A DNA stretch of 64,000 nt from Malacoraja senta (lineage: Eukaryota): positions 5,830,001-5,894,000 of the forward strand of contig CM075996.1 in assembly GCA_038087875.1 (NCBI GenBank), given 5' to 3'. Made by a program: the position numbers and the translations under genes. Shown piece after piece: positions 1 to 60,655 of the stretch. How positions within the stretch are numbered: the first letter of the stretch is position 1; the number at the start of each line of letters is the position of its first letter. A model generated the notes under the pieces. The model saw nothing but the letters and a program-made list of their open reading frames with translations. It did no database searches and was not told the DNA's origin.

Positions 1-1324
1 TACTTTGACCTATTTCTGTGCTGTGATTAATTATTTAATCAATTTTATCTCCGCTGTACTAGTTATTTTCGGGTGCAAACCTGTGAACTCCAGTCCTCTG
101 CCCTTTTCCCCATTGTTGTGCTTTTTATGTGTTTGGTTGTGATCGAATTCGCTTCTAAAAACCATGATTGAATCTATCCCAGTTTCCATCGGCCAGTGCA
201 TTCCAGATGCGAACTGCTGCTCGCATAAAGTTATTTTTATTTTACGAATTATCTTTAAATCAGCAAAGAATTACTGTGAGAGTGAAGGCAAGGCTGGTGA
301 AGATATTAAAATGGAAAATGACAGACTGTGACGGGAAGGGACAGAAAGTACAAATCAAAGGGTAGATCAGTTGATAAAACTCGCAGTTTAAATAAACATG
401 ACAAAGATAAGGGTTCTGTTTCTGAGGAGATGTAACCTTTGAAACAAAACAGATGAACTCCGAGTGCAATTAAAAATAAATATGATCTCATAAAGCCTAA
501 TACAGAGAAGTGGTTGCATAATGTACATTAGGATCTAGAACATTGACATATAAGGATAAGAAACGAGGATAAGATAGAGAAATGCGTCATAACAACTCAT
601 GATGGTCATAGTGCAATAGAGAGCAATGATGTAAGTTCAGGACAGCAGCTGTAGAAGTAATTTGTCCCTGTTTTGCCATATTGTTGTTTAACATTAATAA
701 TTTCTGAAGCCAACTTTCTAAAGGACTAGAATTAAAGATGTATAAAATTTCATATTTCGGACCACCTTTATTTCCTGCTTGAAGTTTTACTTTTTTTTCG
801 TCTTTTATTGTTTTCTGCCGTTTTTTATTCTCTTCTCTTCTGACCGGTCACCTGCCTTTTCACAAATGTTTTAGCATTTTCAGATAACAAGTGGTTGGTA
901 CTTCCCTTGACATTTTACGTTGGCAAATGAACATATAGGTATTTCGCACCAGTCTTCACGATAGAGAAGTTTGGGTAAAAACTTCTCCCAAAGTTTGAAG
1001 AAGGGTCTGAAGAAGGGTTTCGGCCCGAAACGTTGCCTATTTCCTTCGCTCCATCGATGCTGCTGCACCCGCTGAGTTTCTCCAGCATTTTTGTGTACCT
1101 TCACGATAGAGAATGTGGGTAACATCCTAAAAATAGCTGTCATGAAGAATTGGAAGGGAAAGAGGAACGCTGAACAAATACTGTCATTAAGCAAGTGATT
1201 GTGAGTCGAGTTGTGGGCAGACAAGTCTCTGGGTCCAGATGAACTTCATCTTATGAATTCTTTTTTTTTTAAAGCTGGTTTTCCTAGATTCAGGGAAGAT
1301 TCTATTAAATTGGAAAATAGCAAA

Positions 1325-2015
1325 CGGAACTTCCCATCTCCAACCCTTTCTGCTTTCCGCAGAGACCGTTCCCTCCGTAACTCCCTGGTCAATTCAGCCC
1401 TTCCCACCCAAACCACCCCCTCCCCGGGTACTTTCCCTTGCAACCGCAGGAAATGCAACACTTGTTCCCCCTCCCACCTCGACTCCATTCAAGGACCCAA
1501 TCAGTCTTTCCAGGTGAGGCAGAGGTTCACCTGCACCTCCTCCAACCTCATCTACTGCATCCGCTGTTCTAGGTGTCAACCTCTCTACATCGGTGAGACC
1601 AAGGGCAGGCTCGGCGTCGCTTCGCTGAACACCTCCGCTCAGTCCCTGTTAACCAACCTGATCGCCCGGTTGCTCAACACTTCAACTCCCCCTCCCATTC
1701 CCAATCTGACCTTTCTGTCCTGGGCCTCCTCCATTGCCAGAGTGAGGCCCAGCGCAAATTGGAGGAACAGCATCTCGTATTTCGTTTGGGTAATTTGCAC
1801 CCCAGCGGTATGAACGCTGAATTCTCTAATTTTAGATAGCCCTTGCTTTCTCCCTCCTTCCCCTCCCCTTCCCAGTTCTCCCACAAGTCCTACTGTCTCC
1901 GCCTACTTCCTTTCTCTCTCTCCCCCCCCTCCCCCGACATCAGTCTGACCCAAAACGTCGCTTATCCCTTCTCTCGATAGATGCTGCCTCTCCCGCTGAG
2001 TTTTTTGTCTACCTT
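1325..2015 (+). mobile_element. Penelope-like retroelement 3' fragment (GIY-YIG endonuclease end plus terminal repeat), degenerate
   Basis: ORF 1211..1813 has PGTFPCNRRKCNTC...FTCTSSNLIYCIRCSRCQPLYIGET, the CCHH-linker plus GIY-YIG pattern of Penelope elements. It is followed by a pyrimidine tract and the terminal motif repeated across the window. Confidence 0.85.
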
Positions 2016-2024
2016 CTTGGTTTA

Positions 2025-2305
2025 GTTTTAGTGTAGTGATACAGCATGGAAACAAGCCACTTTAGCACACCAAATCCTCGACCAACACCTAATTCTATCC
2101 TACACACCAGGGACAATTTTCAGTAGCCAATTAACCTACAAACCTGCACTCTTTGGGATATTGGAGGAGACCGGAGCACCCAGCGAAATCCCACACGGTC
2201 GCTGGGAGAACGTACAAACTTCATACAGACAGCACACATAGTCAAGAGCGAACCAGGGTCTCTTGCGCTGTAAAGCAGCAACTCGACCGCTGTGCCACTG
2301 CGCCG
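2025..2305 (-). mobile_element. tRNA-derived V-SINE/HE1-type SINE
   Basis: The reverse complement shows a tRNA-like head (GGCACAGCGGTCGAGTTGCTGC), the central GGTTTGTAGGTTAATTGG and a (CTAAA)n tail; more than 12 homologous copies occur in the window. Confidence 0.75.
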
Positions 2306-2929
2306 CTCTTAATTCTAAGAGAGCGGGAGACAGAAAAACGGAAAGGCCAGTTAGCTTAACGTCTGTCATAGGGAACATTTTAGACAGTCATCAAAGGTTA
2401 TGGCAGGAACATGCAAAGTTCAAGATAATCAAGCAACGTCAATGTGGTTTTGTGATGAGGAAGTCATGCGTGACTCACTTAACAAACTAATTTGAGAAGT
2501 AATAGATCTCTGGATGAAGGGATACTGGCGGGTTTACAGAAGGCATGAAAAGTTATTGCTACAAACAAAATCACATGGTGTAGGATGAAACATTGGCAGG
2601 CTCATAGAAAACAGTGTGTTCAGAAATAAAACAGGGAAGTTAATGCTTCAGTTATATAGAACATTGATTAGACTTTATCTTGAGTACTGTATTGGATTCT
2701 GCGTTTAAGGAAGGATTTTTGATGTCCGGAATTAACCCATCCCCTTCCAAATGGAAGTAAATCCTATCCCGAAAAACGCTCTCCAGTGCCTTCTCTACCA
2801 CTGACGTGAGGCTCGTTGGCCTCTGATTCCCTGGATTATCTCTACCCCTCATCACATCTCTACTCCTTTCCACATTGATGGGGATGGGGAAGAGCAGAGG
2901 CAGAAGGACACCATTTCTTGCAGCTTTCC

Positions 2930-3367
2930 GTGTGTGTGTGTGGGCCCCTGTGTGTGTGGGCCCCTGTGTGTGTGGGCCCCTGTGTGTGTGGGTGTGTGTC
3001 TGTGTGTCATTGTGTCTCGCTGTGTGTGTGTGTCTCTGTGTCTGTGTGTGTGTGTGTGTCTCTGTGTGTGTCTCTGTGTGTGTGTCTCTGTGTGTGTGTC
3101 TCTGTGTGTGTGTCTCTGTGTGTGTGTCTCTGTGTGTGTGTCTCTGTGTGTGTGTCTCTGTGTGTGTGTCTCTGTGTGTGTGTCTCTGTGTGTGTGTCTC
3201 TGTGTGTGTCTCTGTGTGTGTGTCTCTGTGTGTGTGTCTCTGTGTGTGTGTCTCTGTGTGTGTGTCTCTGTGTGTCTCTGTGTGTGTGTCTCTGTGTGTG
3301 TGTCTCTGTGCGTGTGTCTCTGTCTCTGTCTCTGTCTCTGTCTCCGTCTCCGTCTCCGTCTCCGTCT
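2930..3367. repeat. Compound (TG)n / (TCTGTGTGTGTG)n microsatellite
   Basis: Directly visible; it explains the low-complexity ORFs here. Confidence 0.95.
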
Positions 3368-3610: not shown

Positions 3611-3718
3611 GACACGGGCTTGTACTACGATCGCTACCTCCGCGAAGTGATCGATGTCCTGGAGACTGACACCCACTTCCGTGAGAAGTTGCAGACGGCC
3701 AATGTAGAAGACATCAAG
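3611..3718 (+). CDS. NUCB1: Nucleobindin-1 coding exon (nesfatin-1-like region; [36 protein letters not shown])
   Basis: cag|GAC ... AAG|gtcagt, 108 bp, phase 0/0; close to mammalian nucleobindin as recalled. Confidence 0.95.
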
Positions 3719-3993
3719 GTCAGTGGGGGGGGGGGGGGGGGGGGAATGGAGGGGAGCTGTGAGCTGGATCAGCGGACGTCATGTTGGGTTGACAGGGTGG
3801 GTCCAGCTTTGACTCATGAATCCACACTCTGATTCTGAACTTGTTTTGGAATTGGCACGGAGAGACTGAGGATCAGCGGCCCAGGTCCAAGAGGCGAGGA
3901 GGGAGAGAACCATATAGTCTGGGATTTGACTAAGGGAGGACTGTTGGCCTGGAGTTTAATGTAGAGTTGGAGAATCGAAGGGGGAAGGTGTAA

Positions 3994-4316
3994 TGGCCCT
4001 GTCCCACGGTACGAGTTCATTCCAAGAGCTCTCCCGAGTTAAAAAAAAATCTAACTCGTGGTAAGCACGGAGAATGAACGTAGCGGGTACGTCGGAGTTC
4101 GGGGATGTCTCTTAGCGGCTCGTAACGCTAACGGCGGGTAGTCGGGTAGACTCGCTAACGGCAGGTAAGCTCGGGAAGACTCGTGAAGATTTTTCAACAT
4201 GTTGAAAAATGTCCACGAGAGCCCCGAGTACTGACGAGCGGCCATTACCATAGAGTTCGAATCAGGGCAAACTCGGGAGAGCTCTTGGAATGAACTCGTA
4301 CCGTGGGACAGGGCTT
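3994..4316. mobile_element. PIF/Harbinger-type MITE
   Basis: About 45-bp terminal inverted repeats (GCCCTGTCCCACGGTACGAGTTCATTCCAAGAGCTCTCCCGAGTT); TAA target duplication at 3991-3993 and 4317-4319. Confidence 0.8.
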
Positions 4317-4723
4317 TAAGGGAGGATTTCGGTGGGCAGGGGGGGCAATGGGAAAATGAGACTGGACAGAACTGCAAACAGGGATCAGGTATTGTGTTTG
4401 GGGGGGGGGGGGGGTCTCGGTGTCTGGTGACATTGGCAGGGGCCCTGGCACCTGAAGACATGAAACTGTTGGCTTCTTGAATTAGGGTAGAACTGCAGCT
4501 TCTCAGGGTCTTGAATGGGGGAGGAATTGCTGGCAGGGTATTGGAATAGTACATGGGGTCACATTCTTGTGGGGATGGCATTAGAGTTGGGGGCAGATTG
4601 TGGCAATGGTGAAGGGATGGGGTTTGGGGAAATCGGTGTTACAAGGGACGATGGTGTACTGTTAGGCTCCGAATCGGTGGCTTGGGTTGTCCCTTGTTAT
4701 TGAAATGCTGGTTCATTCCACAG

Positions 4724-4856
4724 AGTGGGAAGCTGAGTACAGAGCTGGATTTTGTCAGTCACCACATCCGAACCAAGCTGGATGAGCTGAAGCGGCAGGA
4801 GGTGTCCAGGCTGCGGATGCTGATCAAGGCCAAGATGGACGCCGAGCAAGGAGAGA
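4724..4856 (+). CDS. NUCB1: NUCB1 exon ([44 protein letters not shown])
   Basis: cag|AGT ... GAGA|gtgaga, 133 bp, phase 0/1; contains the dibasic KR processing site. Confidence 0.95.
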
Positions 4857-6120
4857 GTGAGAGCCCTTTCTTGCATTAGCTTGGACTCTTCTTCCCAGGG
4901 GCCGGGAGTCAGAAACTACAGGGCTTAGGTTTACGCTGTGAAGGGAAAAAAATTAATAGGGACATGGAGGGCAACTTTTCCCACAGAAAGGGTGGTGGGT
5001 TTATGGAACGGGCTGCCAGAGGAAGTGGTAGAGGCAGGAACATCCTTGTGGGCATGGCATTGGAGTTGAGGGAAGATTGTGGGAATGGTGAAGGGAAGGG
5101 GTTGTGGGGAACCACAGTGGAGGGTTTCACTGGGTACGAGGAGTGATGGCAGGCTGTCAAGTGAAATCAATAGAATTTATTGTCATGTGTCCCAGATAGG
5201 ACAATGAAATTCTTGCTTTGCTTCAGCACAATATAGTAGGCATGAATACAGAACATATCAGGCTCCGACTTGGTAGCCTTGGTGGTTCCCTTGTCATTGA
5301 CATTTAAAAAGGCACTTGGACAAGTACATGGATAGGTGTGTGGGCCAGGTGCTGCAAGTGTGACTAGCTCGTTTTGGCAACTTGGTTGCCGCGGATGAGT
5401 TGGGCGGAGGGGCTTGTTTCCGTGCTATCCAGCTCCACCACTGTTGTTCTCAGGGTGGGGAAGGGAAAGTTATTCACCGGGCATAGTGTTAATGATGTCT
5501 GTTGGTTGGAGTGAATTCCAGGACTGCATAACCTCCATAAGTGAATGAAAGGGGTGGAATAATGGCCTGGGGTTTAGTGGAGGGTCGGAGAGTTAGACAA
5601 TAGACAATAGGTGCAGCAGTAGGCCATTCGGCCCTTCGAGCCATTCAATGTGATCATGGCTGATCATCCCCAATCAGTACCCCGCTCCTGCCTTCTCCCC
5701 ATATCCCCTGACTCCGCTATCTTTTAGATGTTGGGTGAATTGATGGGGAAAGATAGGGAAAGGGGAAAGATGTAAGGGGGAGGGGGTTTGGAGGAGGCGG
5801 GGGGGGGGCCAATGGGAGAATGTGATGAGACAAAATTGCAAATGATAATCAGGTATTGTGGGTGGGGAGGGGGGGGGGTTCTTGGTGTTTGTCTGGTGAC
5901 ATTGGGAGGGGCCCTGGCACATGAACTCAGGCAACTGTTGACTTCTTGAGTTAGGGTAGAACTGCTGGTTTTCAGGGTCTTGAGTAGGAATGGGGGGGTT
6001 AGGGGGGAGGAAATGCTGGCAGTATTGGGGTAGCACAAGGGGTCACATCATTGTGGGCATGGTGTTAGACTTGAGGAAAGATTGTGGGAATGGTGAAGGG
6101 GAAACCACAGGCAAGGTGAC

Positions 6121-6390
6121 TTTAGCTTTAGAAATACAGAGCAGAAACAGGCCCTAAGGCCCACCGAGCGATGCCCCCCCACACTAACACCATCCCACAC
6201 ACACTGGGGACAATTTTCCATTTTTACCAAGCCAATTAGCCTGCAGACCTGCACGTCTTTGGAGTGTGGGAGTAAACCAGAGAAAACCCACGCAGGTCAC
6301 GTGGAGAACATACAAACTCCGTACAGGCAGCACCTGTAGTCGGGATCGAACCCAGATCTCAGTTGCTGTGAGGCAGCAACTCTACCGCTG
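6121..6390 (-). mobile_element. V-SINE/HE1-type SINE
   Basis: Homologous to the other copies; tRNA B-box-like GGGTTCGATCC on the minus strand. Confidence 0.75.
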
Positions 6391-6475
6391 TTTGGTCAAG
6401 CAGTATTAAACCTGGTGGATTTATCAGTCCCAACTTGAGCTCGGAGTTCACCCATTTCCCCTCGCGTCTTCCCAG

Positions 6476-6579
6476 GTGTGCAGATCGATCACCTGAACCT
6501 ACTGAAGCAGATTGAACATCTGGATCCGAAGAATGCCCACACCTTCGAGGCTCGAGACTTGGAGCTGCTGATCCAAGCG
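6476..6579 (+). CDS. NUCB1: NUCB1 exon ([34 protein letters not shown])
   Basis: ccag|GT ... GCG|gtgggt, 104 bp, phase 1/0; DHLNLLKQ and [13 protein letters not shown] favour NUCB1 over NUCB2. Confidence 0.95.
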
Positions 6580-7381
6580 GTGGGTGTGCATGTTGTGAGC
6601 TGTTCGGCTGCCGTTGGGTATCTTAATGGGAGAAACTCGGCTCGGAGAGATGTTTCCACTGGTGGGAGAGTCTAGGACTAGAGGTCATAGCCTCAGAATT
6701 AAAAGGATGTTATTTTAGGAAGGAGATGAGGAGGAATTTCTTTCGTCAGAGGGTGGTGAATCTGTGGAATTATTTGTGGATGCTGACAGTGGATATGTTT
6801 AAGGCAGAGATAGATAGATTCTTGATTAGTATGGGTGTCAGAGGTTATGGGGAGAAGGCAGGAGAATGGGGTTAGGAGGGAGAGATAGATCAGCCATGAT
6901 TGAATATGTTTAGGAAGGAACTGCAGGTGCTGGTTTAAAAACTGGAGTAACTCAGCGGGACAGGCAACATCTCTGGAGAGAAGGAATGGGTGAAGAAATC
7001 TCTGGAGAGAAGGCAGCATCTCTGGAGAGAAAGAATGGATGTTTCGGGTCGAGACCCTTCCTCAGACTGATTAGAGATAAGAGATTCTTGATTAGTGCGG
7101 GTGCCAGGGGTTATGGGGAGGCAGGAGAATGGGGTAAGGAGGGAGAGATGGATTAGCCATGATTGAATGGCGGGGTAGACTTGATGGGCCGAATGGCCTA
7201 ATTCTGCTCGTATCACTTATGATCTTGTGAGCCCTGAAGGTGGAGATGGAAGGAAGGGCAGTGGCTGGTGGTGGGCCCAGTGGGGGCGAGCAGTGGTGAA
7301 ATAGTGGACAGGGACTTCAGCCACTCTTCCTCCTGCTGTACAATGGAGTGACTGACGCTCAGTACTGGTGTGGATCTGCAG

Positions 7382-7567
7382 GCCACCAAAGATCTGGAGC
7401 ACTACGACCAAGCCCACCACGAGGAGTTCAAACGCTACGAGATGCTGAAGGAGCACGAGAGGCGGGAGTACCTCAAATCTCTGGACGAGGAGAAGCGCAA
7501 CGTGGAGGAGGCTCGGTTCCAGCAGATGAAGGAGAAACACAAGGAACATCCGAAAGTCAACGTGCCG
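7382..7567 (+). CDS. NUCB1: NUCB1 exon ([31 protein letters not shown]...HPKVNVP)
   Basis: gcag|GCC ... CCG|gtgagg, 186 bp, phase 0/0. Confidence 0.95.
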
Positions 7568-8061
7568 GTGAGGGCAGAGGGTGCATGGGCACGGGGGCGG
7601 GAGGATGGTGTCGACCTTTGACTCGGGCAAACGAGAGAGAACCATCCTTCAGTGCCACCAGAAGCTTGCTCGTTCATTGGGTGATCGCCAGCCCTGACCC
7701 TCCACCCATCCAAAATAACTGATCCATTCACAATATTCATGCAAACTGACCTTTTACCTCCAGTCTAAATTGCTCAGCCACTCACTTGCAATTTCTATTA
7801 TTTTGATTGATTAAAAAAATGCAGCATAGAAACGGGTCCTTCGGTCCACAAAGTCCACGCTGACCATCGATCACCCATTCACACTGGTTCTATGTTACAC
7901 CACTTTCGCGTCCGCTGCCTACACCCCAGGGGCAATTTTACAGAGGCCAGTTAACCTACAAACCCGCACGTCTTGGGCGTGTGAGAGGAAACCGGAGAAC
8001 CCGGATGAAGGTCACAGAGAGAACATGCTAACTTCATGTAGATAGCACCCGAGCCCAGGAT

Positions 8062-8816
8062 CAATAGACAATAGGTGCAGGAGTAGGCCATTCGGTTCCT
8101 CGAGTCATTCAATGTGATCATGGCTGATCATCCCCAATCAGTACCCCCTTCCTGCCTTCTCCCCATATCCCCTGACTCCGCTATTTTTAAGAGCCCTATC
8201 TAGCTCTCTCTTGAATGCATCCAGAGAACCTGCCTCCACCGCCCTCTGAGGTGGAGAATTCCACAGACTCACCACTCTCTGTGAGAAAAAGTGTTTCCTC
8301 ATCTCCGTTCTAAATGGCTTACTCCTTATTCTTAAACTGTGGCCCCTGGTTCTGGACTCCCCCAACATCGGGAACATGTTTCCTGCCTCTAGCGTGTTCA
8401 AACTCTTAACAATCTTATATGTTTCAATGAGATCCCCTCTCATCCTTCTGAACTCCAGAGTGTACAAGCCCAGCTGCTCCATTCTCTCAGCATATGACAG
8501 CCCCGCCATCCCGGGAATTAACCTTGTAAACCCACGCTGCACTCCCTCAATAGCAAGAATGTCCTTCCTCAAATTAGGGGACCAAAACTGCACACAATAC
8601 TCCAGGTGTGGTCTCACTAGGTCTCTGTACAACTGCAGAAGGACCTCTTTGCTCCTATATTCGATTCCTCTTGTTATAAAGGCCAACATGCCATTCACTT
8701 TCTTCACTGCCTGCTGTACCTGCATGCTTACTTTCATAGACTGATGAACAAGGACCCCCAGATCCCGTTGTACTTCCCCTTTTCTCAACTTGTCGCCGTT
8801 TAGATAGTAATCTGCC
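8062..8816 (-). mobile_element. CR1/HER1 LINE 5'-truncated copy, inserted in a SINE
   Basis: ORF 8138..8872 has [15 protein letters not shown]...RTRGHSL...FFSQRVVSLWNS (CR1 ORF2 C-terminus) and a (CTATTGT)n tail; SINE halves flank it. Confidence 0.9.
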
Positions 8817-9110
8817 TGGATGGAACCCGGGTCTCTGTTGCTGTGAGGCGGCAACTCTACCAGCTGCACCATTGTGCCGCCCTTACTCTACACTTCACTG
8901 GCTTCTGTCACAAATACTCCATCCAATTCAGGAACATGAACCCTCCTTTGGTTAATAGCATTGTACTTGCTTGCACCTTTCCTATAGAGTCACCTTCTGT
9001 ACGTATCCATCAAACTTCTGGGATACAAGGAGATTGTTTTGATCGGGGGTTTGAAGTGAAGGGTTGGCAGGAGCGCTTGTTGATGGCCTTTGTTTTTGTC
9101 TCTGTGACAG

Positions 9111-9201
9111 GGGAGCCGGGACCAGCTGAAGGAGGTGTGGGAGGAAACGGACGGTCTCGACCCCAACGAGTTCAACCCAAAGACTTTCTTCAAACTGCAT
9201 G
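9111..9201 (+). CDS. NUCB1: NUCB1 exon ([30 protein letters not shown])
   Basis: acag|GGG ... CATG|gtaaac, 91 bp, phase 0/1. Confidence 0.95.
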
Positions 9202-10044
9202 GTAAACAGCAAGGGGTTCCTTCGCCAGACCCACTGTATTCCCTCGTTCCCACTCTGTTTCCAGTCTCACATGGTCAAGGGAGACCTATCGACATCTCTC
9301 TATCCCTAGTCCACCCCTTTTGATCTACCTATGTGGTCTCCATCCCTCTCCCAACATCGCGGAGTCCTGTGACCCTTTGTCGGGGGTCGCCAGCGTGAAT
9401 CCCCGACCAGCTCGGCCTGTGGACTTCGGGAGCTGCGGACTTCGGGAGCTGTGGGAGGTGGCCAATTTAGAGGTCCGGGCCGCTGAGGATGTTCCACCAT
9501 TCCCGGCGAGAGGGCCTGAACATCGGACCACCCGTAGCAGCGACTACGGGGTGCTCGGGAGGCCCCGACCACGGGTGAACATCTGGGAAGATCAACGAGG
9601 AGGTCGACTGGACTTTGGTTCCTTCCCTCACAGTGGGGAACTTTGGTGCCGCTGTGGGGATGTTTGTGTTTTGGACTTCTGTGTTTTGTGCTTTTTAAAA
9701 AATTTGTATGACTGTAAGGAAAATAGCATTTCGTTGTCTCTTATGAGACAATGACAATAAATTGAATCCGAATCCGAATCCGAAAATCTATCAACCCACT
9801 CTCACTGATCCCTTGTCCCTTCCGTAGCCCACCCCACTGGGAACTTGGTGTAGCCCCTCCCCTGACCTCCTCTATCTCCCAGTATCTCTCTGTGACTCCC
9901 AACCCAATACTTCACCCAATCTCGAGGCTCGTGAGTCCTTCCCCAGTGTCGTTGTTCATCCTACCTCCTATGTCAGATCTTGTACCAGGTGCTGTTCTGT
10001 CCTTAAATCTTACCGAGCATCTCCTCATCTCGTCTCTTTCGCAG

Positions 10045-10103
10045 ATACGAACAACGACGGCGTGTTGGACGAGCAAGAACTTGAAGCTCTGTTTACAAAA
10101 GAG
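10045..10103 (+). CDS. NUCB1: NUCB1 exon, EF-hand 1 (DTNNDGVLDEQELEALFTKE)
   Basis: gcag|AT ... GAG|gtgagg, 59 bp, phase 1/0; canonical EF-hand loop. Confidence 0.95.
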
Positions 10104-11095
10104 GTGAGGGGCTGAACCTTTTGAGCCATGTCTCCAGACCTGGTGTGCATTGACAGTGGTGGCCCTGATCCTCTTCACCAGCTGTGTGTGAGTGTGGCAG
10201 TGCATGTGGTCACTGCGACCCGCGCGCACCCCACAGGTACATCTCTGCTGTGTTGTCTAAACGCTGACAGGCTGACTTATGGGTGATGCTGTGACTATAT
10301 GTGGAGGCATGTAACGGCTAGTTACCTTTGATAGAGAGAGCGATAGAGTGTGTTTCCTTTTGCAGGCCCAGGTCCTTCTGAGCAATCACTCTCCACTTGC
10401 CTAAATCTCCCCCCTTCCCCCTCGAGTATTTTCACCCAATTTCTGCTGTACTCATTCATTTAGGGGATCTGGGCACCACTGACAATGCCAGGGCTTACTG
10501 CCCCTCTCTGGATGGCCCTGAACAGAGTGGTTTGCTCAGCCATTTCAAAAGAAATGTAATAGTCAATGTCCTGGGATGTGTCTAGAGTCCTAACCGTGTC
10601 AAGGCATCAGGTTGGTTTCCATGGCAGTCTGGTAACTTTTGAGATCGCGATGATGATGTTTTCTCCAAATGCCAAATTATTAACCGAGATTCAATTCCCT
10701 ATTGACCATGATGGGATTTAAACTCCATCCAGGTCTTGCCATTGGTCATCCAGGCCTTTGGAGGAACTGTCTGCAAATCTAACTGCTGTGCCACCAACGT
10801 ACCCCATTGAATTTGAGGTGCTGTTCACACGGGTCTTCTTAGAGCTAATCCTCTGGTAGGTAGGCAGGATCTCCTGTTGGACTGCTCGGGTATCGGTAAG
10901 GCAATGGTGACCTTCCTTGACCCAGGCTTCAGATCGTGGCCGATCTCAGAAGGTGCTCCTCGCATGTTTTTACCAAGTGTTTGGGAGGGTTGCAGTGAGG
11001 GGTTTTAATTGCCCGTGTCTCAGTCGCTGTGTGATTTGCAGGGCCCTGTAGATATTAATAAAAACGTGTTGTTTTTTTTTTTGCATCACGTGAAG

Positions 11096-11188
11096 CTGGA
11101 GAAAGTTTACGATCCCAAAAACGAGGAGGATGACATGTTGGAGATGGAAGAGGAGCGGCTGCGGATGAGGGAGCATGTGATGAATGAG
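11096..11188 (+). CDS. NUCB1: NUCB1 exon ([31 protein letters not shown])
   Basis: gaag|CTG ... GAG|gtgagt, 93 bp, phase 0/0. Confidence 0.95.
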
Positions 11189-12644
11189 GTGAGTTTGGTC
11201 CTGGGCTCAGAAAGCTGAGCCAGACGTGTATAAATACCCGGGGGGGGGGTCTGTCACTGTTCCTTAACGATTCATTTTTATACAGTGTAATGTTGCAATC
11301 ACTCCTTTGCTGGAGTGCAGGATTGTGATCCCATCAAGATGTAATGACTCAAACTGCTGGAGTAACTCAGTGGGTCAGGCAACATCCCTGGAGAACATGG
11401 ACATGTGATGTTTCAGATAGGGGCCCCATCTTCAGACTTCTTCAGTGTCTGATGATGGGTCCCAACCTGAAACATCACCTATCAGTGTTCTCCAGAGAAG
11501 CTGCCTGAACCACTGAGTTACTCCAGCACTTTGTGTCCTTTAGTGTATACTAGCACCTGCAGTTCCTTGTTTCCACAGGGTGCAATGACTAAATGCTATA
11601 CCGCATGACTAGTCAGTTTAGTTGAATCTAAGTTAAGGGTCAAACATTCCTGCTGCAGCATCAGTACTTAGAATCATACAGCATGGAAATAGGCCCTTCG
11701 GCCCAGCTCATCCATGCTGACCAAGATGCCTCATCTAAGCTTGCCCATTTACCTGCATTTGATCCACATCCCTCTCATCCTTTCCGATCCATGTATCTGT
11801 CCAAGTGTCTTTTAAATGTCTAACGTCACATGAGGAAGGGTCTTGACCTGAGACGTCACCTCTGTGTTCTCCAGAGATGCTGCCTGACCTGCTGACTTAC
11901 TCCAGCATTTTGTGTACCTTTTGAGTAAACTAGCATCTGCAGTTCCTTGTTTCTGCTCTGCTGCAAATGGTGAGAATGTCCTAACTCCACACAGACAGCA
12001 CCCGAGCCCAGGATGGAACCCGGCTCTCTGGCACTAGAGCCTGCTCCACCATTCAGGAAGATTGTGGCTAATCTGATACCTCACTACCTCCGTTGCCCTG
12101 ATCATATCCTGTCATTCCTTCAGTCTGCACAAATGTATTAATTTTGATTCGATACGAAGGAGGGAAATTGATTTGCCAACGGTCATTAAAAAAAAATGCA
12201 AAATACATGAAATAAACGTATAACAACTGAACATCCACGGTTCTTAGACTGGGAGAGTTTCTGAGCTCCATTGCCCTCTCAGTAAGTAATTTCTCCTCAT
12301 CTCATCCCACTATCCCAATATTTAAGAAACAGACAAGTACATGGATAGGACAGTTTTTGATGGGATATGAGCCAAGCGCAGGCAGGTGAGACTAGTGTAC
12401 CTGGGACATGTTGGCCGGTGTGGGCAAGTTGGGCCGTAGGGCCTGTTTCCACGCTTTACGACTCTGACCCAGCCTGAAGTGGCCACTATTTCTCAACTCG
12501 CCTTTGGGTTGCAATTGGGTTACTTCTTACTCGTCTAATCCAGGGAATACAGGCTCCTTCTACTCAATCTGCCACTTCTTTGTAGTCTCCTGATTTTTGT
12601 TTTCTGTTTAATTCTGAGATGTAGTGTCAGAAGGTGACTGCTCT

Positions 12645-12998
12645 ATTGACACGCTAGAGGCAGGAAACATGCTCCCAATGTTGGGGGAGTCCAGAACCAG
12701 GGGCCACAGTTTAAGAATAAGGGGTAAGACATTTAGAACGGAGACGAGGAAACACTTTTTCTCACAGAGAGTGGTGAGTCTGTGGAATTCTCTGCCTCAG
12801 AGGGCGGTGGAGACAGGTTCTCTGGATGCTTTAAAGAGAGAGCTAGATAGGGCTCTTAAAGATAGCGGAGTCAGGGGATATGGGGAGAAGGCAGGAACGG
12901 GGTACTGATTGGGGATGATCAGCTATGATCACATTGAATGGCGGTGCTGGCTCGAAGGGCCGAATGGTCTACTCCTGCACCTATTGTCTATTGTCTAT
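12645..12998 (+). mobile_element. CR1/HER1 LINE 3' fragment
   Basis: [14 protein letters not shown]...LWNSLP peptide and the shared 3' UTR and tail. Confidence 0.85.
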
Positions 12999-13245
12999 CT
13001 TGGTAATCCTTGGAGTGTGAATATCTCTTTCGCTCTCTCTCCTGCTCCCTCTGTTCTACTGTCTCTAATCAGCAAGGCATTTCTATGTCAAGAGCAGCTG
13101 GACGTTATTGGGAATTCATGTCCTGATCTCGCTCTCCCATTACAAACCTGGAGATATTGTCCCTGGAATGGACAGACAATGTCTCCCGGCCAGGACTCCT
13201 GACTGCATGATTCTTCACCTCACTGACCATCTACTTGCCTGGCAG

Positions 13246-13335
13246 GTCGACACCAACAAGGATCGGCTGGTCACCCTGGAAGAATTCCTGAAATCCACAG
13301 AGAAGAAGGAGTTCCTGGAGCCGGAGGAGTGGGAG
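13246..13335 (+). CDS. NUCB1: NUCB1 exon, EF-hand 2 / GBA motif (VDTNKDRLVTLEEFLKSTEKKEFLEPEEWE)
   Basis: gcag|GTC ... GAG|gtcagt, 90 bp, phase 0/0. Confidence 0.95.
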
Positions 13336-13569
13336 GTCAGTGCCTGGTTACCAGGAGGAAGGGATGAGGGGAGTGGGGAGCGGGGTTGTGTTGGGGAGAA
13401 AACAGTGGTGAATGGTGTGAGAATGGCTGACTGTGGTACTCCTGTCATGTGTGGGCTTGATGTGAGTGAGCAGAGGGAGGGCGGGGGGGGGTTAGTGGCT
13501 GGTGCTGGTTCAGGGCTGTGCGGACCTGGGAGAGAGTGTGGGGGGGGGGGGGGAAATGATGGAGCCTTA

Positions 13570-13925
13570 AGGGCCTGTCCCACTGTACGAGGTAATTCAA
13601 GAGTCCTCCCGAGTTTTCCCCTGATTCGAACTCGGAGAATGTCCGTAGCGGGTCCATAGGGGTTCGTGGATGTCTCGTAGCGGCTCGTACGAGTAACGGT
13701 AGGTACTCGGAAAATCCGGTAAACTCGTGACGTTTTTTCAACACTGAAAGATGTCCACGAGTAAAAAAAATACTCGTGATGAAAAAAATGGTTACTTTTT
13801 ACTCGTACGAGCCGCTATGAGACATCCACGAACTCCTACGGACCCGCTACGGACATTCTCCGAGTTTGAATCGGGGGAAAACTCGGGAGAACTCTTGAAT
13901 TACCTCGTACAGTGGGACAGGCCCT
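13570..13925. mobile_element. PIF/Harbinger-type MITE
   Basis: TIR AGGGCCTGTCCCACTGTACGAGGTAATTCAAGAG with long internal inverted symmetry; TTA TSD at 13567-69 and 13926-28. Confidence 0.85.
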
Positions 13926-13944
13926 TTAGGGTTTTGGGGGAGAG

Positions 13945-14600: not shown

Positions 14601-14617
14601 GATGATGTCTATTCCCG

Positions 14618-15185: not shown

Positions 15186-15321
15186 CATAGGAACTTGATG
15201 GGGATGGCGGGGGGGGAGGAGAGATGCGGTCACTGTGTGACTCCGTTAGGTCAGTGGGCTTGTGGGCACAGGTATGGGCTGACGATCTACTGACCCCCCC
15301 CCCGGCCTTACTCTGGAGCAG

Positions 15322-15492
15322 ACGCTGGACGAGACGCAGATCTACACGGAGGAGGAGCTGCGACAGTACGAGCGGGAACTGGCTGAGCAGGAGGCTGAGA
15401 TCGCCCACAAGGTGGAGCAGCTGAGGAGGGAGCACGAGGACCTGCAGCGGAGGCAGAGCGAGCTCGACGCCCAGAAGAAAGAATACCATCAG
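15322..15492 (+). CDS. NUCB1: NUCB1 exon, leucine zipper / coiled coil (TLDETQIYTEEELRQYERELAEQEAEI...ELDAQKKEYHQ)
   Basis: gcag|ACG ... CAG|gtgagg, 171 bp, phase 0/0. Confidence 0.93.
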
Positions 15493-47486: not shown

Positions 47487-48999
47487 GTACGGCACGCATG
47501 CTGCTCACTTCCCTTCACACCTCGTATGTTGATGGAGCCAGCATGTCCTGTCTGTGTGGGCGCTGGTTTTACACCGACGATAGCCGCAAACATGCTGGAG
47601 TAACTCAGCGGGACAGGCAGTATCTGTGGAGGGAAGGAACGGGTGACGTTTCAGGTGGCGAACCTTTCTGTGTCCAGGACACAGACCCCTCCACAGTATG
47701 GACATGCAGCGGCACCACCTCACAGTCTGCAGTCTGTTCTGGCCATTGCCATCACTTGGTCTGTTGAACTGAAGATTTAGAGGGAGTTTTAGAATGGAAA
47801 CAGGTCCTTCAGCCCACCGAGGATCACCTTGCGCAAACCACCCGTCCACTAGTTCAATCTTGCACACTAGGCCCAACTTATAAAAGCCCAATTAACCTAC
47901 AAACCCGCATGACTTTGGAATGTGGGCGGAAACCTAGAGCACCCGGAGAAAACCCACGCGGTCACAGGGAGAAGGTACAAACTCCGTGGTCAGGATTGAA
48001 CCCGGGTCTCTGGCATTGTGAGTCAGCAACTCTACTGCTGCACCATCTTGGTTCAATCACCAAGTGCAAGGAATAGACAAGCAGCGCTGCATTCTCACAA
48101 CGACACTGATGTAACGCCTTGCATTCAGCCACCTCTCACAGAATCATACAGCGCAGCAACAGGCCCTTCAGCCCTCTCTCTCCAGGCTGACCATCAAGTA
48201 TCTCCCTCTACTGATCCTGTGTACTCTTATGTCCAGACACACTCGGATACAAACAGGCATTTACATACAAAAGCATATGTATTAGCAAAGACACGCACAA
48301 AAACGTATGTATTAGCAAAGACACGTAGGCAGAGTTGGCCAGAGACCCTGTGTGGAATTCATTGCCACAGACGGCTGTGGATGCCAAGACAATGGATAGT
48401 TTTAAGGTGGACATTGATGGATTCTTGATTAGTACGGGTGCCGGGAGTTATGGGGAGAAGGCAGGATAAATGGGGTTGAGAGGGAAAGATAGATCAGCCA
48501 TGAATGAATGGTGGAGTAGACTTGATGGGCCGAACAGCCTAATTCTGCTCCTAGAACATGAACTTACGATAAGAAATCTCTGGTTATCAGGTCACCTTGG
48601 GTCTTGGACAACTGTTCTGGGATGTGATTAGCAGTTAAAAATAAATTAATTTGATTTATAAGTTTCTAATAGAGGAAAATGATTGCAATTGCAGCTCTAT
48701 AAAGATGTAGTCAATGTAATAAAAAAAAAAGAACTGCAGATGCTAGTTTATACCAAAGCTAGACACAAAATCGTCATGTGATAGGAGCAGAATTAGGCCA
48801 TTCGGCCCATCAAATGCTGGAGTAACAACGGGTCAGGCAGCATGTTGTCCATTTGAGAGTTGATTGGAATGAATCCATATTGGCATTGAGTGGTTGGTGT
48901 GACTGGATTGTGGTGATTGCTGGATCTGGGTTGGTGATTGTGGTGGGATCACTGAGGGGGCTCTGGACGGACGCAGTGACAGCGGCTGTGTTTCTCCAG

Positions 49000-49844: not shown

Positions 49845-49943
<99 letters not shown>

Positions 49944-53485: not shown

Positions 53486-53886
53486 GTAACACCGTCTGCA
53501 TCACAATCAAAGAGAGACACAAAAAGCTGGAGCAACTCGGCGGGTCAGACAGCATCTCTCGAGAAAAGGAATAGGTGATGTTTCGGGTCGAGACCCTTCT
53601 CCAGAGATGTTGCCTGACCCGCTGGAGTTATTCCAGCTTTTTGTGTCTATCTTCAGATTAAACCAGCATCTGCGGTTACTTCCTATGCATTACAACCATC
53701 TCCTGTGCCCAATTCCATTTTGAAGGTACCTGTGGAATCTGCTTCCATCACCCTCTCAGGCCCCACGCCCAACAAGTCACTGCATGAATGGATATCTCAT
53801 CCCCTCTCTCTGTTGCCGGTCCCCTTCTGTCTGTGAGCCTCAAGCACCAATCCCCTTGCCACTGGGAACGCATTCCCCCAAACTCT

Positions 53887-54545: not shown

Positions 54546-56639
54546 GTGGGTGCAGCCCAGCCTATCGCCATCACTGTAGGGTGACCACATCCAGTCTCTG
54601 CTGGCATTGGCGGTACCAGGCTGTACCCGCCCGTCTCACTGAGACGACCATCTCCTTCTTCCCAAATAACCAAAGGTTCAGCTGGCAGAGCTGTGTAGGA
54701 AGGAACTGCAGATGCTGGTTTAAACCGAAGATAGACACAAAATGCTGGAGTAACTCAGCTGGGACAGGCAGCGTCTCTGGAGAGAAGGAATGGGTGACAT
54801 TTCGGGTCTGAAGAAGGGTCCCGACCCGAAACGTCACCCATTCCTTCTCTCCAGAGATACTGCCTGTCCCAGCTGAGTTACTCCAGCATTTTGTGTCTCG
54901 ACGCTCCGGCAACCCCCGAGTTTGATCCAGACCTCGGGCGCTCTCTGTGTGGAGTTTGCACGTTCTCCCTGTGGTGGCCTCGAGGGTTTCCTCCCAGTGT
55001 TCCGGTTTTCTCTCACATCTCATTGTGGCTGCTGTAAATTGGTCCTAATCTCGGTGGTTAGCAAGAGGATCCGTAGAAGGGTATTAAAATGGGCATGTGT
55101 GAGGGAACTGACTGAAGAGGAACAAGAGGATGGATGGCGTTACTCTGGGAGGCATATGGGTTAGATGGACCGAAATTGGTCTCATGTGTTATCAGGTAAT
55201 GTAAAGGGCCTGTCCCACTTACGCGGGTTTTTTCGGCGACCCGTCATAGTCGCAGCAGGTGGCCGAAAATGTTCAACATGTTGAAAATCAAGCGGCGACC
55301 AGGAAAAGGTACAACTCTTAGGGCAACTACTCACCACCGTACAGGAGTCACCTCCATACAGGAGTCACCACCATACAGGAGGCACCTTGCGATTTGCCAA
55401 ATCCCTCCAAACCTTTCCTATCCATGTAACTGTCCAAGAGTCTTTTAAATGGTGTTAAAGTACCTGCCTCAACTACCTCCTCTGGCAACTCATTCCATCT
55501 AGCCACCAGCCTCAGAGTGAAAGGTTTGCCCCTCAGGTTCCTATCAAATCTTGCCTCACTCGCCTTAATCCTGTGCCCTCTGGTTCTTGATTCCCCTACT
55601 CTGGGTAAAAGACTGTGCCCTCACCCTGTCCCTTGCTGCAGCTTAACAGGCCCGTTAACACAGTAACACACAGGAATATATAATAATCAACACTATACTA
55701 AATTAATAGCCATTATACTAGGTAGCCATGACAGTGCAACTAAGGACAGGGTCTATAGAAGATCATAGATGTTGAGGTAGTGGTTGATGCTGAGCCTGAT
55801 GGTTGATAGAAGGAAGATGTTTAGACTCTGTTATGAGCTAATGTCCTGATCTTTCCATGTTCCATTCCAATGGTCGGCGCCTTTGGAGAATGCTGGGAGC
55901 TATCTGAGTTTAGCCTTTAGTTTAGTTTCGTGTGGGGATCGTCAACCAGCGATCCCCTCGCACGCTTAACATTATGTGAAGGAGCAGGCAGGAGAATGGG
56001 GTCAGGAGGGAGAGATAGATCAGCCATGATTGAATGGCGGAGTAAACATAGAAACATAGAAAATAGGTGCAGGAGTAGGCCATTCGGCCCTTCGAGCCTG
56101 CACCGCCATTTGATATGATCATGGCTGATCATCCAACTCAGTATCCCATCCCTGCCTTCTCTCCATACCCCCTGATCCCTTTAGCCACAAGGGCCACATC
56201 TAACTCCCTCTTAAATATAGCCAATGAACTGGCCTCAACTACCTTCTGTGGAGTAGACTTGATGGGCCGAATGGCCTAATTCTGCTCCTATCACTTATGA
56301 CCTTATGAACACCATCCTACACACTAGGGATAATTGTTTTCACCAAAGCCAATTAACCTACAAACATGTACGTCTTTGGAGTGCGGAAGGAAACTGGAGC
56401 TCCCAGAAATAATCCATGCAGGTCACAGGGAGAACATACAAACTCCGTACAGACAGCACCCATAGTCGGGATCGAATCCAGGTCTCTGGCGCTGTAAGGC
56501 AGCAACTAACCCCCACGCCGAGTGTTTGCTCTGAAGGGAATTGTGACGAATGGAAAACATGACCCTTGTGCCTTTGTTTTGAATTTTGTTAACCTAGAAT
56601 AAGACAGTTAGGGATTGCCTGATGAGGACGTACGTTCCC

Positions 56640-57122: not shown

Positions 57123-57148
57123 GGCTTAATCTCCTGTTCAATTGACAG

Positions 57149-57439: not shown

Positions 57440-58770
57440 GTAAGAGTATTCCCGCGGCTGGGACCACATCCCCGAGCCCGTTCCCCAGCCCGACCAGATC
57501 AGGAAGCTCTCATCTGAGGCTTCAGCCACAACACAAACACCACAACCCCCGCCACTGAGGGTGGACTGTATTTGGTTTAGTTTTGGTAGACAGAAGTGCT
57601 GGAGAAACTCAGCGGTTGCAGCAGCATCTATGGAGCGAAGGAAATAGGCAACGTTTTGGGCCGAAACCCTTCTTCAGACCCAACAGACTGGTTTAGTTTA
57701 GTTTAGAGATACAGCACGGAAACGGGCCCTTCGGCCCGCGCAGTCCACCGATATCCCCCTACACTGGCACTATCCTACACACACTAGGGACAATTTACAA
57801 TTTTACCAAAACCAATTAACCTACAAAACTGCATGTCTTTGGTGTGTGGGAGGAAACCGGAGCACCCGGAGAAAACCCACGCGGTTCAAGGTTCAAGGTT
57901 CAAGGTCAGTTTATTGTCACATGTACCAATTAAGGTACAGTGAAATTCAGATTGACATGCAGTCACACCAATAAAGAGCAACAAGACACATGTTGATTCC
58001 TAGGTCCAGGAGTTTGGAGATGAGTTTGGGTGTGAATATGGTGTTGAAGGTGGAGCTGTAGTCGATAGCTTCTCAGAAATCTATCCACATTGGCTGCTAT
58101 CTCCCTCTGGTGGTTAAGGTCCACTCTCAGCTGCATGGTTGCTCCCAGTTTGTTCTTCACTCCAATCCAGGCGGTCTTGTGAAAACATCAGCCTTCCTGA
58201 CAGCTGGAATTGTCTCCTAAAAACCACACGGCTTAGGATCTAACCTCGACTCCTGAAAAATCCTGTCACGGAATGCTGAGTGGTTACTCCTACAAGACAT
58301 GTTTCAATTCTGAAATTTTACTCCCACTTATCTGCCCCTCTTCTCAGTTCACTGCCTTTAATTCCTTGATTCTTTGAGCTAACGTTAACCAATAAGCACT
58401 GCTGGAGACACAAGGAACTGTAGATGCTGGTTTACAACAAAAAAAAGGTATGAAGTGCTGGAGTAACTCAACGGCTCAGGCAGAATCTCTGGAGATCATG
58501 GATAAGTAACGTTTCACTTCAGGACCCTTCAGACTCTGGAGAAGGATCCCGACCCGAAACGTCACCCACCCGTGTTCTCCAGGGATGCTCCCTGGCCCGC
58601 TGAGTTACTTTTTTTAAGCACCGCTGAATGACTTTTTGTTATTTGTTTACGGCCATGTCTGGCCTAGCAGGTCTGGTTCCCCACTGTGAGAAGATAAGAG
58701 AGTATTTTTGAATCTTTGTCAGCGTGGCGACTCTTTGCAAGGGGGACAACCCCTGGGCGACCGCCTAGGT

Positions 58771-59131
58771 CAGGGGTCGGCAACTTACGGCCCAGGGGCC
58801 GGATCCGGCCCGTAAAACAGAAATCATCCGGCCCGCAGGCGATTTTTTTTTTCAATTTGTTTTCGCGACCTGGGAACTGCAGCTAGTCCCGGGGACGCGA
58901 GCTGATCTGGGAACTGCAGCTTGTCCCGGGGCAGGCGAGCCGACCTGGGCAATACAGCCAGTCCCGGGGCAGGCGAGCCGACCTGGGAACTGCAGAAAAC
59001 TAATTGAAAAACACATGAAAACTAATGCGAAAAACAACACCAAGTGTCACCCTACGGCGATAGATGTGGCCCCCCATCCGCTCACAGACATGGGTCCGGG
59101 CCCCTATGCAGAACAAGGTTGCCGACTCCTG
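58771..59131. mobile_element. hAT/Charlie-type MITE
   Basis: TIR CAGGGGTCGGCAAC / GTTGCCGACTCCTG; 8-bp TSD GCCTAGGT; internal repeats of about 36 bp. Confidence 0.88.
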
Positions 59132-59458
59132 GCCTAGGTGAAGCCTGCTGTATGATTCTATCGAATTTTATGCAAAAACACGGAATTTCACTGTACATGT
59201 GACAATAAATTTTCATTCATGTTTTATTTCTATTTCCCACGTTCACCAGCCCCTCATGTCCCCCGTTTATTGTTGCCTCTCTCCTCTCCGAGTCAGCTTC
59301 CCGGCCCACCTGTTTGTAACAGTGGGGGGGCTGAGTGAGTGTGAGAAAGGATAAGAATGGGTGTACAAGTGTTTTAATAGAGTGAACACGTGCGTGTGGC
59401 CGCACTGATCTTCACTGTGTGTCCGTACACACCCACCAGATGCAACTTTTGTTTTCAG

Positions 59459-59589
59459 TGTAAACCGAGTCAAGTCACATTGACGTCACGCTACCTTGAT
59501 GTGGACCCTGACCCGCCCTTCAGCCCAGAGCAACTGCAAGAGAAGCAAAGAACACCGGAGGAGGTGAAGACTGTGATCACCAAGGCCAG
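59459..59589 (+). CDS. PLEKHA4: PLEKHA4 exon (CKPSQVTLTSRYLDVDPDPPFSPEQLQEKQRTPEEVKTVITKA)
   Basis: ttcag|TGT ... AG|gtgagg, 131 bp, phase 0/2; resembles the KP.KV.IPERY....P.S.E motif of PLEKHA5/6/7. Confidence 0.85.
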
Positions 59590-60350
59590 GTGAGGAGCGC
59601 TGCAGTGGAGGAGGCTGTTCAGCCCTTCATGCGATGTTCTAACCCTTTGAAACAACTCCCAAATTTCCATCCCTTTCCCCACAACCCTGTTTCCCAAGAA
59701 TATGTCCAATGCCTCTTTGAAATCTATTACTGAACCTGCTTCCTCTTCCCCTAACACTCGCTGCTGCAAGGTGGACAATCCCTGGGTCTCTCCACCTTTC
59801 CTTGATCATCGCTGCTGGCTTTGATTTGTTCTTTTAATACCTCAAATTTCCCTCTCCCCTGTCTGACTCGGTCTGAAGAAGGGTCTCGACCCGAAACGTC
59901 ACCTATTCCTTTTCTCCAGAGATGTTGGCTGACCCGCTTGTGTCCATCTTCAAGGTCGATGCCAAGCTCAGTTCAAGGTCAGGTCAATGCAAGGCCATGG
60001 ATCAAACTAAAGCCCAGTGTTAATCAATGCCCTCTGTAACCCTTTGTTTAACTGTTGTTGCCCAAATGCCAATGGACTTCTGGCTTGGGATGAGGATTGA
60101 TGCTGGTCATTTCACTTGCTCACTTCCAAGTCAAGGAGCTCGTTCTGACCCTTGATGTGCACCAGACCACTCCCTTGCTTCATTAGAGTCATAGAACACT
60201 GAAACAGGCCTCTGGCCCAATGTTCACGGCAACCAAAATACTCCACCCAAGCTCGACCCACCAGCCTGCGATCGACCCAAATCCCTCTAAACCTTTCCTA
60301 TCCATGTACCTATCGAAGTGTTTTTAATACTTCCAACATAGTTTAGATGC

Positions 60351-60655
60351 TAGACACAAAATGCTGGAGTAACTCAGCGGGTCAGGCAGCATCTCTGGAG
60401 AAAAGGAATAGGTGACGTTTCGGGTCGACACCCTTCTTCAGACCAATAGACAATAGGTGGCCCACTCTTGCACCTATTGTCTATTGTCTATTGTCTATTG
60501 GTCTGAAGAAGGGTCTCGACTGAAACGTGGTCTGAAGAAGGGTCTCGACCGAAACGTCACCTATTCCTTTTCTCCAGAGATGCTGTCTGACCCGCTGAGT
60601 TACTACAGCATTTTGTGTCAATCTTTGGTTTAAACCAGCATCTGTAGTTCCTTCA
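60351..60655. mobile_element. Palindromic Penelope-terminal element with hammerhead-like cores (representative of more than 20 copies)
   Basis: Inverted arms ACACAAAATGCTGGAGTAACTCAGCGGGTCAGGCAGCATCTCTGGAG...GACGTTTCGGGTCGA; the same motif ends the Penelope fragment at about 1940-2015. Confidence 0.75.

Follow-up and report, generated by a model that had tools for sequence, protein, structure and literature searches.

A 64 kb stretch of the genome of the skate Malacoraja senta (GCA_038087875.1, contig CM075996.1, positions 5,830,001 to 5,894,000; hereafter the window) contains a large number of short repeats, many of them paired head-to-head as palindromes, that carry the core of a minimal hammerhead ribozyme. 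We consider it probable that these repeats derive from the pseudo-long terminal repeats (pseudo-LTRs) of Neptune-type Penelope elements, which contain a known minimal hammerhead, and that the individual loci arose by target-primed reverse transcription with double priming from two sites internal to the RNA.

The ribozyme pattern CTGANGANGGGTYTCGRCCCGAAACGTY has 16 matches in the window at no more than three mismatches and none in any of 100 shuffles. Exact copies lie on the plus strand at 1007-1034, 38660-38687, 45479-45506 and 59873-59900; the plus-strand copy at 54808-54835 departs by a single loop change and that at 60532-60558 by a 1 nt deletion within stem II. Copies on the minus strand are located at 7038-7065 (G16.2>A), 57650-57677 (G12>A) and 60414-60441 (intact), so that the positions given in an initial annotation of this DNA are confirmed on both strands. 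A profile search places the motif in a repeat of about 150 profile positions, of which the window contains 56 arms (29 plus, 27 minus) at 38 loci, 17 of these being head-to-head and 21 solo arms. The repeated pseudo-LTR segment is approximately 100-135 nt long, and the arms together account for 5,197 bases, or 8.1% of the window. Under a strict descriptor (CUGANGA, 0-2 extra bases, a stem II of at least 3 bp opened by G-C, GAAA, complementary 15.2/16.2 and UH), seven copies pass, at 1007, 38660, 45479, 54808, 59873 and 60532 on the plus strand and 60441 on the minus strand, compared with none in 100 shuffles. The 'dozens' of motifs initially proposed are thus found as repeat arms, 26 of the 56 spanning C3 to H17, and not as intact motifs. 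The arms sort into about five families by crude typing, and several different upstream sequences are present.

The 3' ends of the 56 arms are bimodal, falling at profile positions of about 111-122 and at 141-148, and the segment of approximately 35 nt between the two termini forms a tail that is present on some arms and absent from others. Exactly one arm is tailed in 15 of the 17 head-to-head loci, as against 49% expected (p=0.001); in the two remaining loci both arms are tailed, there is no target duplication and the arms belong to different families, so each is probably the product of two events. A flanking direct repeat of 12-16 bp reaches at least the 99th percentile of random pairs in 8 of the 17 palindromes, and exceeds the 95th in 2 more. 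Target-duplication scores for solo arms (7 of 22 scored at least 9) were not counted as tests, since the search window was wider than that of the null. The same two termini appear in public contigs (X1, X2 and X22) as loose ends at 39113 and/or 39147-39149 with AT-rich flanks, among the matches listed (24 of 1,085).

This organization is best explained by double priming, which would be the simplest model. The protein of PAc, the Poseidon element of Anolis carolinensis, is a predicted dimer that cuts both target strands and extends each of them, and in vitro work on PAc traces the 30-40 bp tail to reverse transcription beginning at two internal sites (Frangieh et al., 2024; PMC11167929). At each skate locus, target-primed reverse transcription would begin with a GIY-YIG enzyme cutting the two strands approximately 10-16 bp apart in AT-rich DNA, and synthesis would start at two internal positions of the RNA, separated by about 35 nt and located roughly 95 and 130 nt 3' of C3. 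Both DNA ends would be extended, one from each start site, and the two cDNAs joined head-to-head, often through microhomology, to give a palindrome that bears the tail on just one of its arms and is flanked by a target duplication; extension of only one DNA end would leave a solo arm.

Two further observations concern the placement of copies relative to one another. An exact joint, on opposite strands, of the long and the short 3' terminus (39113 and 39148) recurs in three sequencing runs that represent two organisms (22, 17 and 13 contigs), and may reflect either self-targeting or the joined ends of a palindromic intermediate. Six neighbouring Penelope loci in the window lie no more than 60 nt apart, with 1.4 expected (p=0.003), and several of these are tail-to-tail (6911-7074, 29230-29561, 40385-40767, 43146-43381, 48729-48843 and 62246-62664), which suggests insertion next to existing copies.

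The 5' ends of the arms are also clustered, with 20 of the 28 arms that reach C3 ending within the 10 positions up to C3, a hazard of 0.71, whereas the eight bins further downstream have hazards of 0.02-0.22 (Fisher p=6e-15 with arms as the unit; 15 of the 38 loci carry the cluster). Just 1 of 41 arms ends in the bin that holds the ribozyme cut site, and many 5' ends are certain, being abutted by the opposite arm or by a target duplication. Since the ends fall at the 5' edge of the ribozyme and not at its cut site, cleaved RNA was not the usual template; uncleaved RNA was copied, most of the cDNAs that passed the ribozyme ending just 5' of it. The boundary may represent a transcription start, a splice boundary or a pause. 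Its sequence, TCAGTCT, which precedes the ribozyme by 1-5 nt, conforms to the initiator consensus YYANWYY and also presents a CAG after a pyrimidine tract, and the RNA may start just before the ribozyme. An initiator-like motif has been noted in rotifer pseudo-LTRs (PMC3846280), and in Drosophila virilis helix I begins where an intron ends (PMC4209133; PMC2377424). By eye, no sequence shared among the 5' flanks was seen that could represent a spliced exon 1 ahead of the core.

We tentatively raise the possibility that the short arms, instead of being truncated 3' ends, represent the 5' end of the Penelope mRNA in full, as run-off copies, the transcript starting or being spliced at TCAGTCT, and that a dimeric enzyme would prime both cut strands at the two internal sites of a single RNA and in this way write a one-tailed palindrome; no statement of this reading was found in our literature searches. 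A cap-derived extra G at arm 5' ends was considered and dropped, since either microhomology or a short tandem duplication accounts for several of the cases. Short tandem duplications of the first 7-31 nt of the ribozyme are present at arm 5' ends at 995-1012, 29224-29240, 57677-57695 and 60498-60558, as if the enzyme had jumped back after running off its template.

By sequence and position, the motif is the known minimal type I hammerhead of Penelope pseudo-LTRs. These ribozymes are described as having an unpaired base after A9, a G10.1-C11.1 pair and a palindromic 15.2-16.2 (Cervera & de la Pena, 2014; PMC4209133), and the skate motif has the unpaired base between A9 and 10.1, the G10.1-C11.1 pair and, in all seven intact copies, a palindromic ACGU (15.2-16.2) without loop 3, which is the dimer type. 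The initial annotation had recognized the CUGANGA, stem II, GAAA and loopless ACGU as features of the minimal type I hammerheads that Penelope elements carry in their terminal repeats, and all agree with the published description, although stem II is better drawn as 4 bp with a 4 nt loop. Stem I is 2 bp long where the native upstream sequence is retained and 3-4 bp where the flank happens to supply pairs, in accord with the 2-4 bp noted at the outset; published values for helix I are 4-5 bp in Schistosoma and 2 bp in D. virilis (PMC4209133).

Conservation of the core relative to its flanks was among the checks that the initial annotation had set for the ribozyme assignment. The core CUGANGA...GAAA...UH proves to be invariant across the five family majorities (0 of 13 columns differing). 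In the adjacent linker, which follows the cut site, 10 of 14 columns differ (p=1e-4), and of all other columns 35 of 112 do so (p=0.011); the differences between families fall in the loop, at H17 (C/U) and at wobble-compatible stem positions. Among 18 aligned copies, stem II is 91% paired and its changes are wobble only. When copies are compared with their own family, the proportion of non-CpG cells that differ is 6.0% for the core and 8.9% for the body (p=0.09), which gives no clear sign of selection after insertion; we read this as selection having acted on the source elements, with the dispersed copies being decaying passengers. Within the source elements the motif is probably a dimer- or protein-assisted switch acting on the element's own RNA.

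The source elements are represented in the window by two remnants of open reading frames (ORFs). The first, a frameshifted C-terminal remnant of a putative Neptune-type Penelope ORF at 1331-1833 on the plus strand, has in translation a Cys-rich CX2-5CxxC linker, a GIY-YIG motif with internal cysteines, CCHH residues that include two downstream histidines, and a stop codon; it matches the C-terminus of RVT_1 plus GIY-YIG proteins of 816-924 aa (E 1e-27 to 1e-32), and is followed at 1834-2017 by a 3' untranslated pyrimidine tract and a pseudo-LTR arm with a partly deleted hammerhead core. The second ends at about 39340 on the minus strand. In both places the motif segment follows the GIY-YIG stop (1833 plus, 39340 minus). 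The earlier proposal that the motif terminates the GIY-YIG fragment (1940-2017) therefore survives as to the segment, with about 13 nt of the core lost, and the motif does flank a Penelope ORF remnant at 39113-39533, with core or stem mismatches in both copies. Pfam did not recognize the GIY-YIG pieces of the window and the assignment rests on relatives, which carry RVT_1 and GIY-YIG; no reverse transcriptase domain is present in the window. By the definitions set out in PMC8557442 the predicted source is several Neptune-type Penelope-like families of the skate, Nematis or Naiad sharing the linker.

The pseudo-LTR segment is abundant and mostly without an ORF, as initially proposed: 7 of the 56 arms continue into upstream Penelope sequence. 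Public contigs were placed on 39105-39403, 99,305 fitting from run X1 and 117,159 from run X2 (another organism), and their summed depth over the arm is about 10 times that over the GIY-YIG ORF end, a ratio that is not a copy number. A dip in depth at 39245-39254 was not used, as substitutions private to the reference copy fall in this stretch and the upstream sequence is different in other families. The arm body (39148-39200, and in all arms) is conserved across families. It holds a small hairpin, and the motif CCAGCAT is repeated upstream of each 3' terminus, which makes it a candidate for protein binding. In family B1 and not in A1, an ATG in the arm body opens a frame through the tail, as read by eye.

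Several points weigh against this interpretation. Target duplications are absent from 7 of the 17 palindromes, and 17 loci in one window leave room for minor families that spread as units; public contigs moreover list recurrent joints near 39233/39201, their kind not stated. The palindrome at 60346-60657 has a duplicated non-Penelope centre and would need fold-back or a read-through template. The arms are not all independent, as the 5' cluster is carried by 15 of 38 loci, and a misalignment mis-typed one arm in the crude family typing. The core is not clearly more conserved than the pseudo-LTR body (0 of 13 differing columns versus 12 of 53; p=0.054). Two further checks set by the initial annotation gave no support: two-sided covariation is seen in none of the eight stem pairs (18 aligned copies, so closely related as to give little power), and Rfam gives no hammerhead match for the window at gathering score or for two short regions at E<=10, returning only generic hairpin families below their cut-offs, though the skate motifs are without a monomer stem III. 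RNAalifold on 18 arms likewise gives a consensus of -0.8 kcal/mol that is not the hammerhead. Given the lack of two-sided covariation and of an Rfam match, the ribozyme call rests on motif identity and position. Finally, the nearest-neighbour energies given below ignore tertiary contacts and help from proteins.

Self-priming is another possible origin of the palindromes: one cDNA, or an antisense transcript, would fold back on itself, a route put forward for the Penelope elements of rotifers (PMC3846280). Paired arms nearly always belong to the same family, often with rare variants in common, several junctions lie at local inverted repeats and one centre is the duplicated non-Penelope palindrome noted above, all of which would fit such an origin, although arms that two primers copied from a single RNA should share variants too. 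The geometry of the arms is less accommodating. Were a tailed strand to fold back, its 5' extent would have to equal or exceed that of the other arm. In 5 of the 15 one-tailed loci the opposite holds, the tail-less arm being the longer at its 5' end, so that it cannot be a fold-back copy of the tailed one; and fold-back of a tail-less strand cannot create a tail. We regard fold-back as rather unlikely to be the source of these loci.

A loss of ribozyme function in these families, with the motif kept as a promoter, splice or protein-binding sequence, is somewhat less likely again. Such a role would sit well with a stem I of 2 bp in copies with native upstream sequence, with a competing helix between the core and the pyrimidine stretch that follows the cut site, and with a pseudo-LTR body that is about as conserved as the core. 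The positions that are invariant across families are, however, the catalytic ones, with variation in the loop, at H17 and at wobble-compatible stem positions, and a helix I of 2 bp has also been reported for D. virilis (PMC4209133).

A further alternative, close to that of the initial annotation, is that a single ORF-less inverted-repeat derivative was amplified as a unit, in the manner of a non-autonomous miniature inverted-repeat transposable element (MITE), by a Penelope enzyme acting in trans. The lack of ORF sequence in most arms (all but the 7 of 56 that continue upstream) and the roughly tenfold depth over the arm, again not a copy number, could be taken in its favour, as could the GGG that three B2 arms have in common before the core and the recurrent joints in public contigs; pseudo-LTRs alone can be mobilized in trans according to PMC3846280. 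An amplified unit should nevertheless repeat its junction, and all 17 junction centres differ, which argues against one amplified unit in the window. In place of the fixed internal structure and symmetric termini of a MITE-like element we find about five families, a tail on one arm in 15 of the 17 palindromes, variable target duplications and 21 solo loci out of 38, and the recurrent joints vary by one or two inserted letters at internal inverted similarity, as for a repair hotspot. Amplification as a unit is accordingly quite improbable, and this part of the initial proposal is not sustained.

Folding of the copies in context is of interest with respect to their behaviour in host transcripts. 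The best cofold is favoured over the hammerhead dimer by 7-21 kcal/mol, and stem II has a pairing probability of 0.00-0.18 in six of the seven intact copies (0.57 for that at 1007); competing folds are found in most copies, in which either a helix forms between the core and the pyrimidine stretch 3' of the cut site or GAAAC is taken up by a refolded stem II. Ten folded palindromes form hairpins of -94 to -227 kcal/mol, and of the seven intact copies five are situated in an antisense arm or pair with one. Inside two host genes there are 48 arms, 24 sense (plus) and 24 antisense (minus), and intact motifs number five sense and one antisense, so nothing suggests purging of sense copies. Judged from these models, activity of the motifs in place seems unlikely, with low or no cleavage expected in host pre-mRNA. 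The earlier view that ribozyme-like motifs were deposited in NUCB1 and PLEKHA4 pre-mRNAs is borne out for the many intronic arms on both strands and not for dozens of functional motifs, seven being intact and five of these being associated with an antisense arm. That the dispersed motifs are active ribozymes which cut NUCB1/PLEKHA4 pre-mRNA as dimers within the transcript, or give circular RNAs, and so regulate the host is highly improbable in spite of the five intact or near-intact sense copies within the PLEKHA4-like gene span, the 3-4 bp of stem I that some copies gained from flanks and the weak cleavage in vitro of Schistosoma minimal motif dimers (PMC4209133), given that intact arms are few (7 of 56), that stem II is poorly paired in six of seven, that sense copies are not depleted and lie kilobases apart, and that the anole ribozyme was reported to cleave only with the element's protein, with no RNA-seq read in that report ending at its cut site (PMC11167929).

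The skate motif shares with the hammerheads described in PMC4209133 its core, the base between A9 and 10.1, G10.1-C11.1, the lack of loop 3, its site in a pseudo-LTR and its dispersal as single motifs; that account describes thousands of minimal copies in fish, coelacanth and frog genomes, mostly dispersed singly and sometimes on opposite strands 100-700 bp apart, which are inactive as monomers and weak as dimers. It differs in its occurrence in the skate lineage, in a helix II of 4 bp (7-8 bp in Schistosoma), in a helix I of 2-4 bp and in a very high local density. The C-terminal GIY-YIG with CCHH and the CX2-5CxxC linker are those of Neptune-type Penelope elements with an endonuclease (EN+), and the insertions have the 5' truncation, the head-to-head inverted 5'-truncated copy, the 30-40 bp tail at one end, the target duplication and the solo pseudo-LTRs described for Penelope (PMC8557442; PMC3846280). 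Unlike those, nearly all of the skate insertions consist of the pseudo-LTR segment only, so that the inverted structure shrinks to a palindrome of 110-420 bp, and the duplications are 10-16 bp compared with 8-10 bp in the rotifer examples. As interpreted here, the skate loci resemble PAc (PMC11167929) in the two internal start sites that define the tail, the cutting and extension of both strands, the AT-rich targets and the uncleaved RNA template, to which PAc adds a predicted protein dimer and a protein-assisted ribozyme, dispensable for insertion; PAc belongs to a different clade.

Non-LTR retrozymes of animals are similarly non-coding, with a type I hammerhead and kinship to Penelope pseudo-LTRs, but form head-to-tail tandem arrays with at least two complete motifs (bioRxiv 10.64898/2026.07.22.740005; PMC7229834), whereas the skate copies are solo or head-to-head. 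We rejected a retrozyme identity, as all 38 loci have one or other of these arrangements and there is a single partial tandem, of 31 nt, at 60498-60558. In twin priming of L1 elements, both nicked target strands prime cDNA to give a 5' inversion within one target duplication; the L1 segments cover different parts of the RNA, while both skate arms cover the same 30-110 nt. Our literature searches, which did not take in subscription journals or the repeat databases that may catalogue these families, returned no report of these elements in skates.

Individual loci illustrate the range of structures. The intact B2 motif at 1007-1034 (plus) lies in a solo tail-less arm (1002-1104), its stem I extended to 4 bp by a short 5' tandem duplication, with a 15 bp target duplication; a second B2 motif, at 45479-45506 (plus), is in a solo tailed arm (45474-45610), has a stem I of 2 bp and is intronic and sense to the PLEKHA4-like gene. 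The A1 palindrome at 38460-38756 has a tailed minus arm and a plus arm with about 60 nt more upstream sequence and the intact motif 38660-38687, with a 15 bp target duplication, and the A1 arms at 54696-54898 are joined through a GTC microhomology, the 3' half of the intact plus motif 54808-54835 being covered by the antisense arm. At the B1 locus 39113-39533 the tail, 39113-39147, lies between the two 3' termini, the minus arm runs into the GIY-YIG ORF end, both motifs are damaged and the target duplication is 12-16 bp; a second B1 palindrome (23379-23563) has its tail on the right arm and a 16 bp duplication. Family A3 contributes the intact plus motif at 59873-59900, with a stem I of 3 bp and a 69 nt inverted match to the minus arm 60376-60444; the palindrome at 60346-60657, with the intact minus motif 60414-60441, the variant plus motif 60532-60558, a 31 nt tandem duplication, the palindromic non-Penelope centre and a 14 bp target duplication; and that at 53505-53685, joined at an inverted similarity between the ribozyme 5' edge and a segment about 40 nt downstream. 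The head-to-head locus at 34023-34167 lacks the hammerhead, and has its tail on the left arm and a 15 bp target duplication. Two adjacent head-to-head insertions occupy 62246-62664 (62246-62439 and 62463-~62650), each with one tail and a 15 bp target duplication, the second joined at the self-complementary stem II/GAAAC region. The profile search added an older head-to-head insertion of family C at 11345-11571 and further head-to-head insertions at 16403-16511, 40385-40577, 40624-40767, 43207-43381 and 58410-58609.

The host genes are both on the plus strand, and the nearest named proteins of their exons are skate proteins. Coding exons of a nucleobindin (NUCB1-like) gene span 3611-19707 and cover residues 36-502 of the nearest protein, the first coding exon not being found in the window; those of the PLEKHA4-like gene span 27273-62066, the last being 59456-59584 in the nearest protein, with one more (61917-62066) in a longer relative. 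Frame changes inside the exon matches at 17190, 19501 and 35899 are possibly assembly indels, and there is a gap of 200 N at 25068-25267.

Other inverted repeats are also present. A different, MITE-like family with ends GCCCTGTCCCAC, unrelated to the Penelope arms, is found at 3996-4314, 13565-13930 and 34576-35499. Inverted pairs of other repeats, with arms 82-85% complementary, lie at 14159-14827, 26247-26893 and 63267-63780 and are perhaps independent insertions; the first two overlap reading frames like those of long interspersed nuclear elements (LINEs). The palindrome centre at 60445-60500 is itself a palindrome of a (CTATTGT)n-bearing repeat end, which we take to be similar to a CR1-type LINE tail.

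The ribozyme, its spread as dispersed Penelope debris and the palindromic insertion signature are already known, and the value of the skate copies may lie in the record that they leave, the tail asymmetry and 5' boundary providing a genome-scale test of the Penelope mechanism. How Penelope makes inverted ends with a one-sided tail, and what purpose its hammerhead serves, are questions that, with approximately one arm per kilobase of the window, can both be tested by counting tails, junctions and 5' ends. The data from the window favour double priming over fold-back and argue against cleaved RNA as the template. If the short arms were indeed run-off copies, the skate genome would be a very large natural record mapping the RNA start, the ribozyme would be held off by the competing helix during reverse transcription, and a cut about 30 nt behind the cap would act as a switch by which the element's own mRNA is stripped of its cap. 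For the host, the many double-stranded hairpins of 60-130 bp that these insertions have put into introns probably matter more than cleavage.

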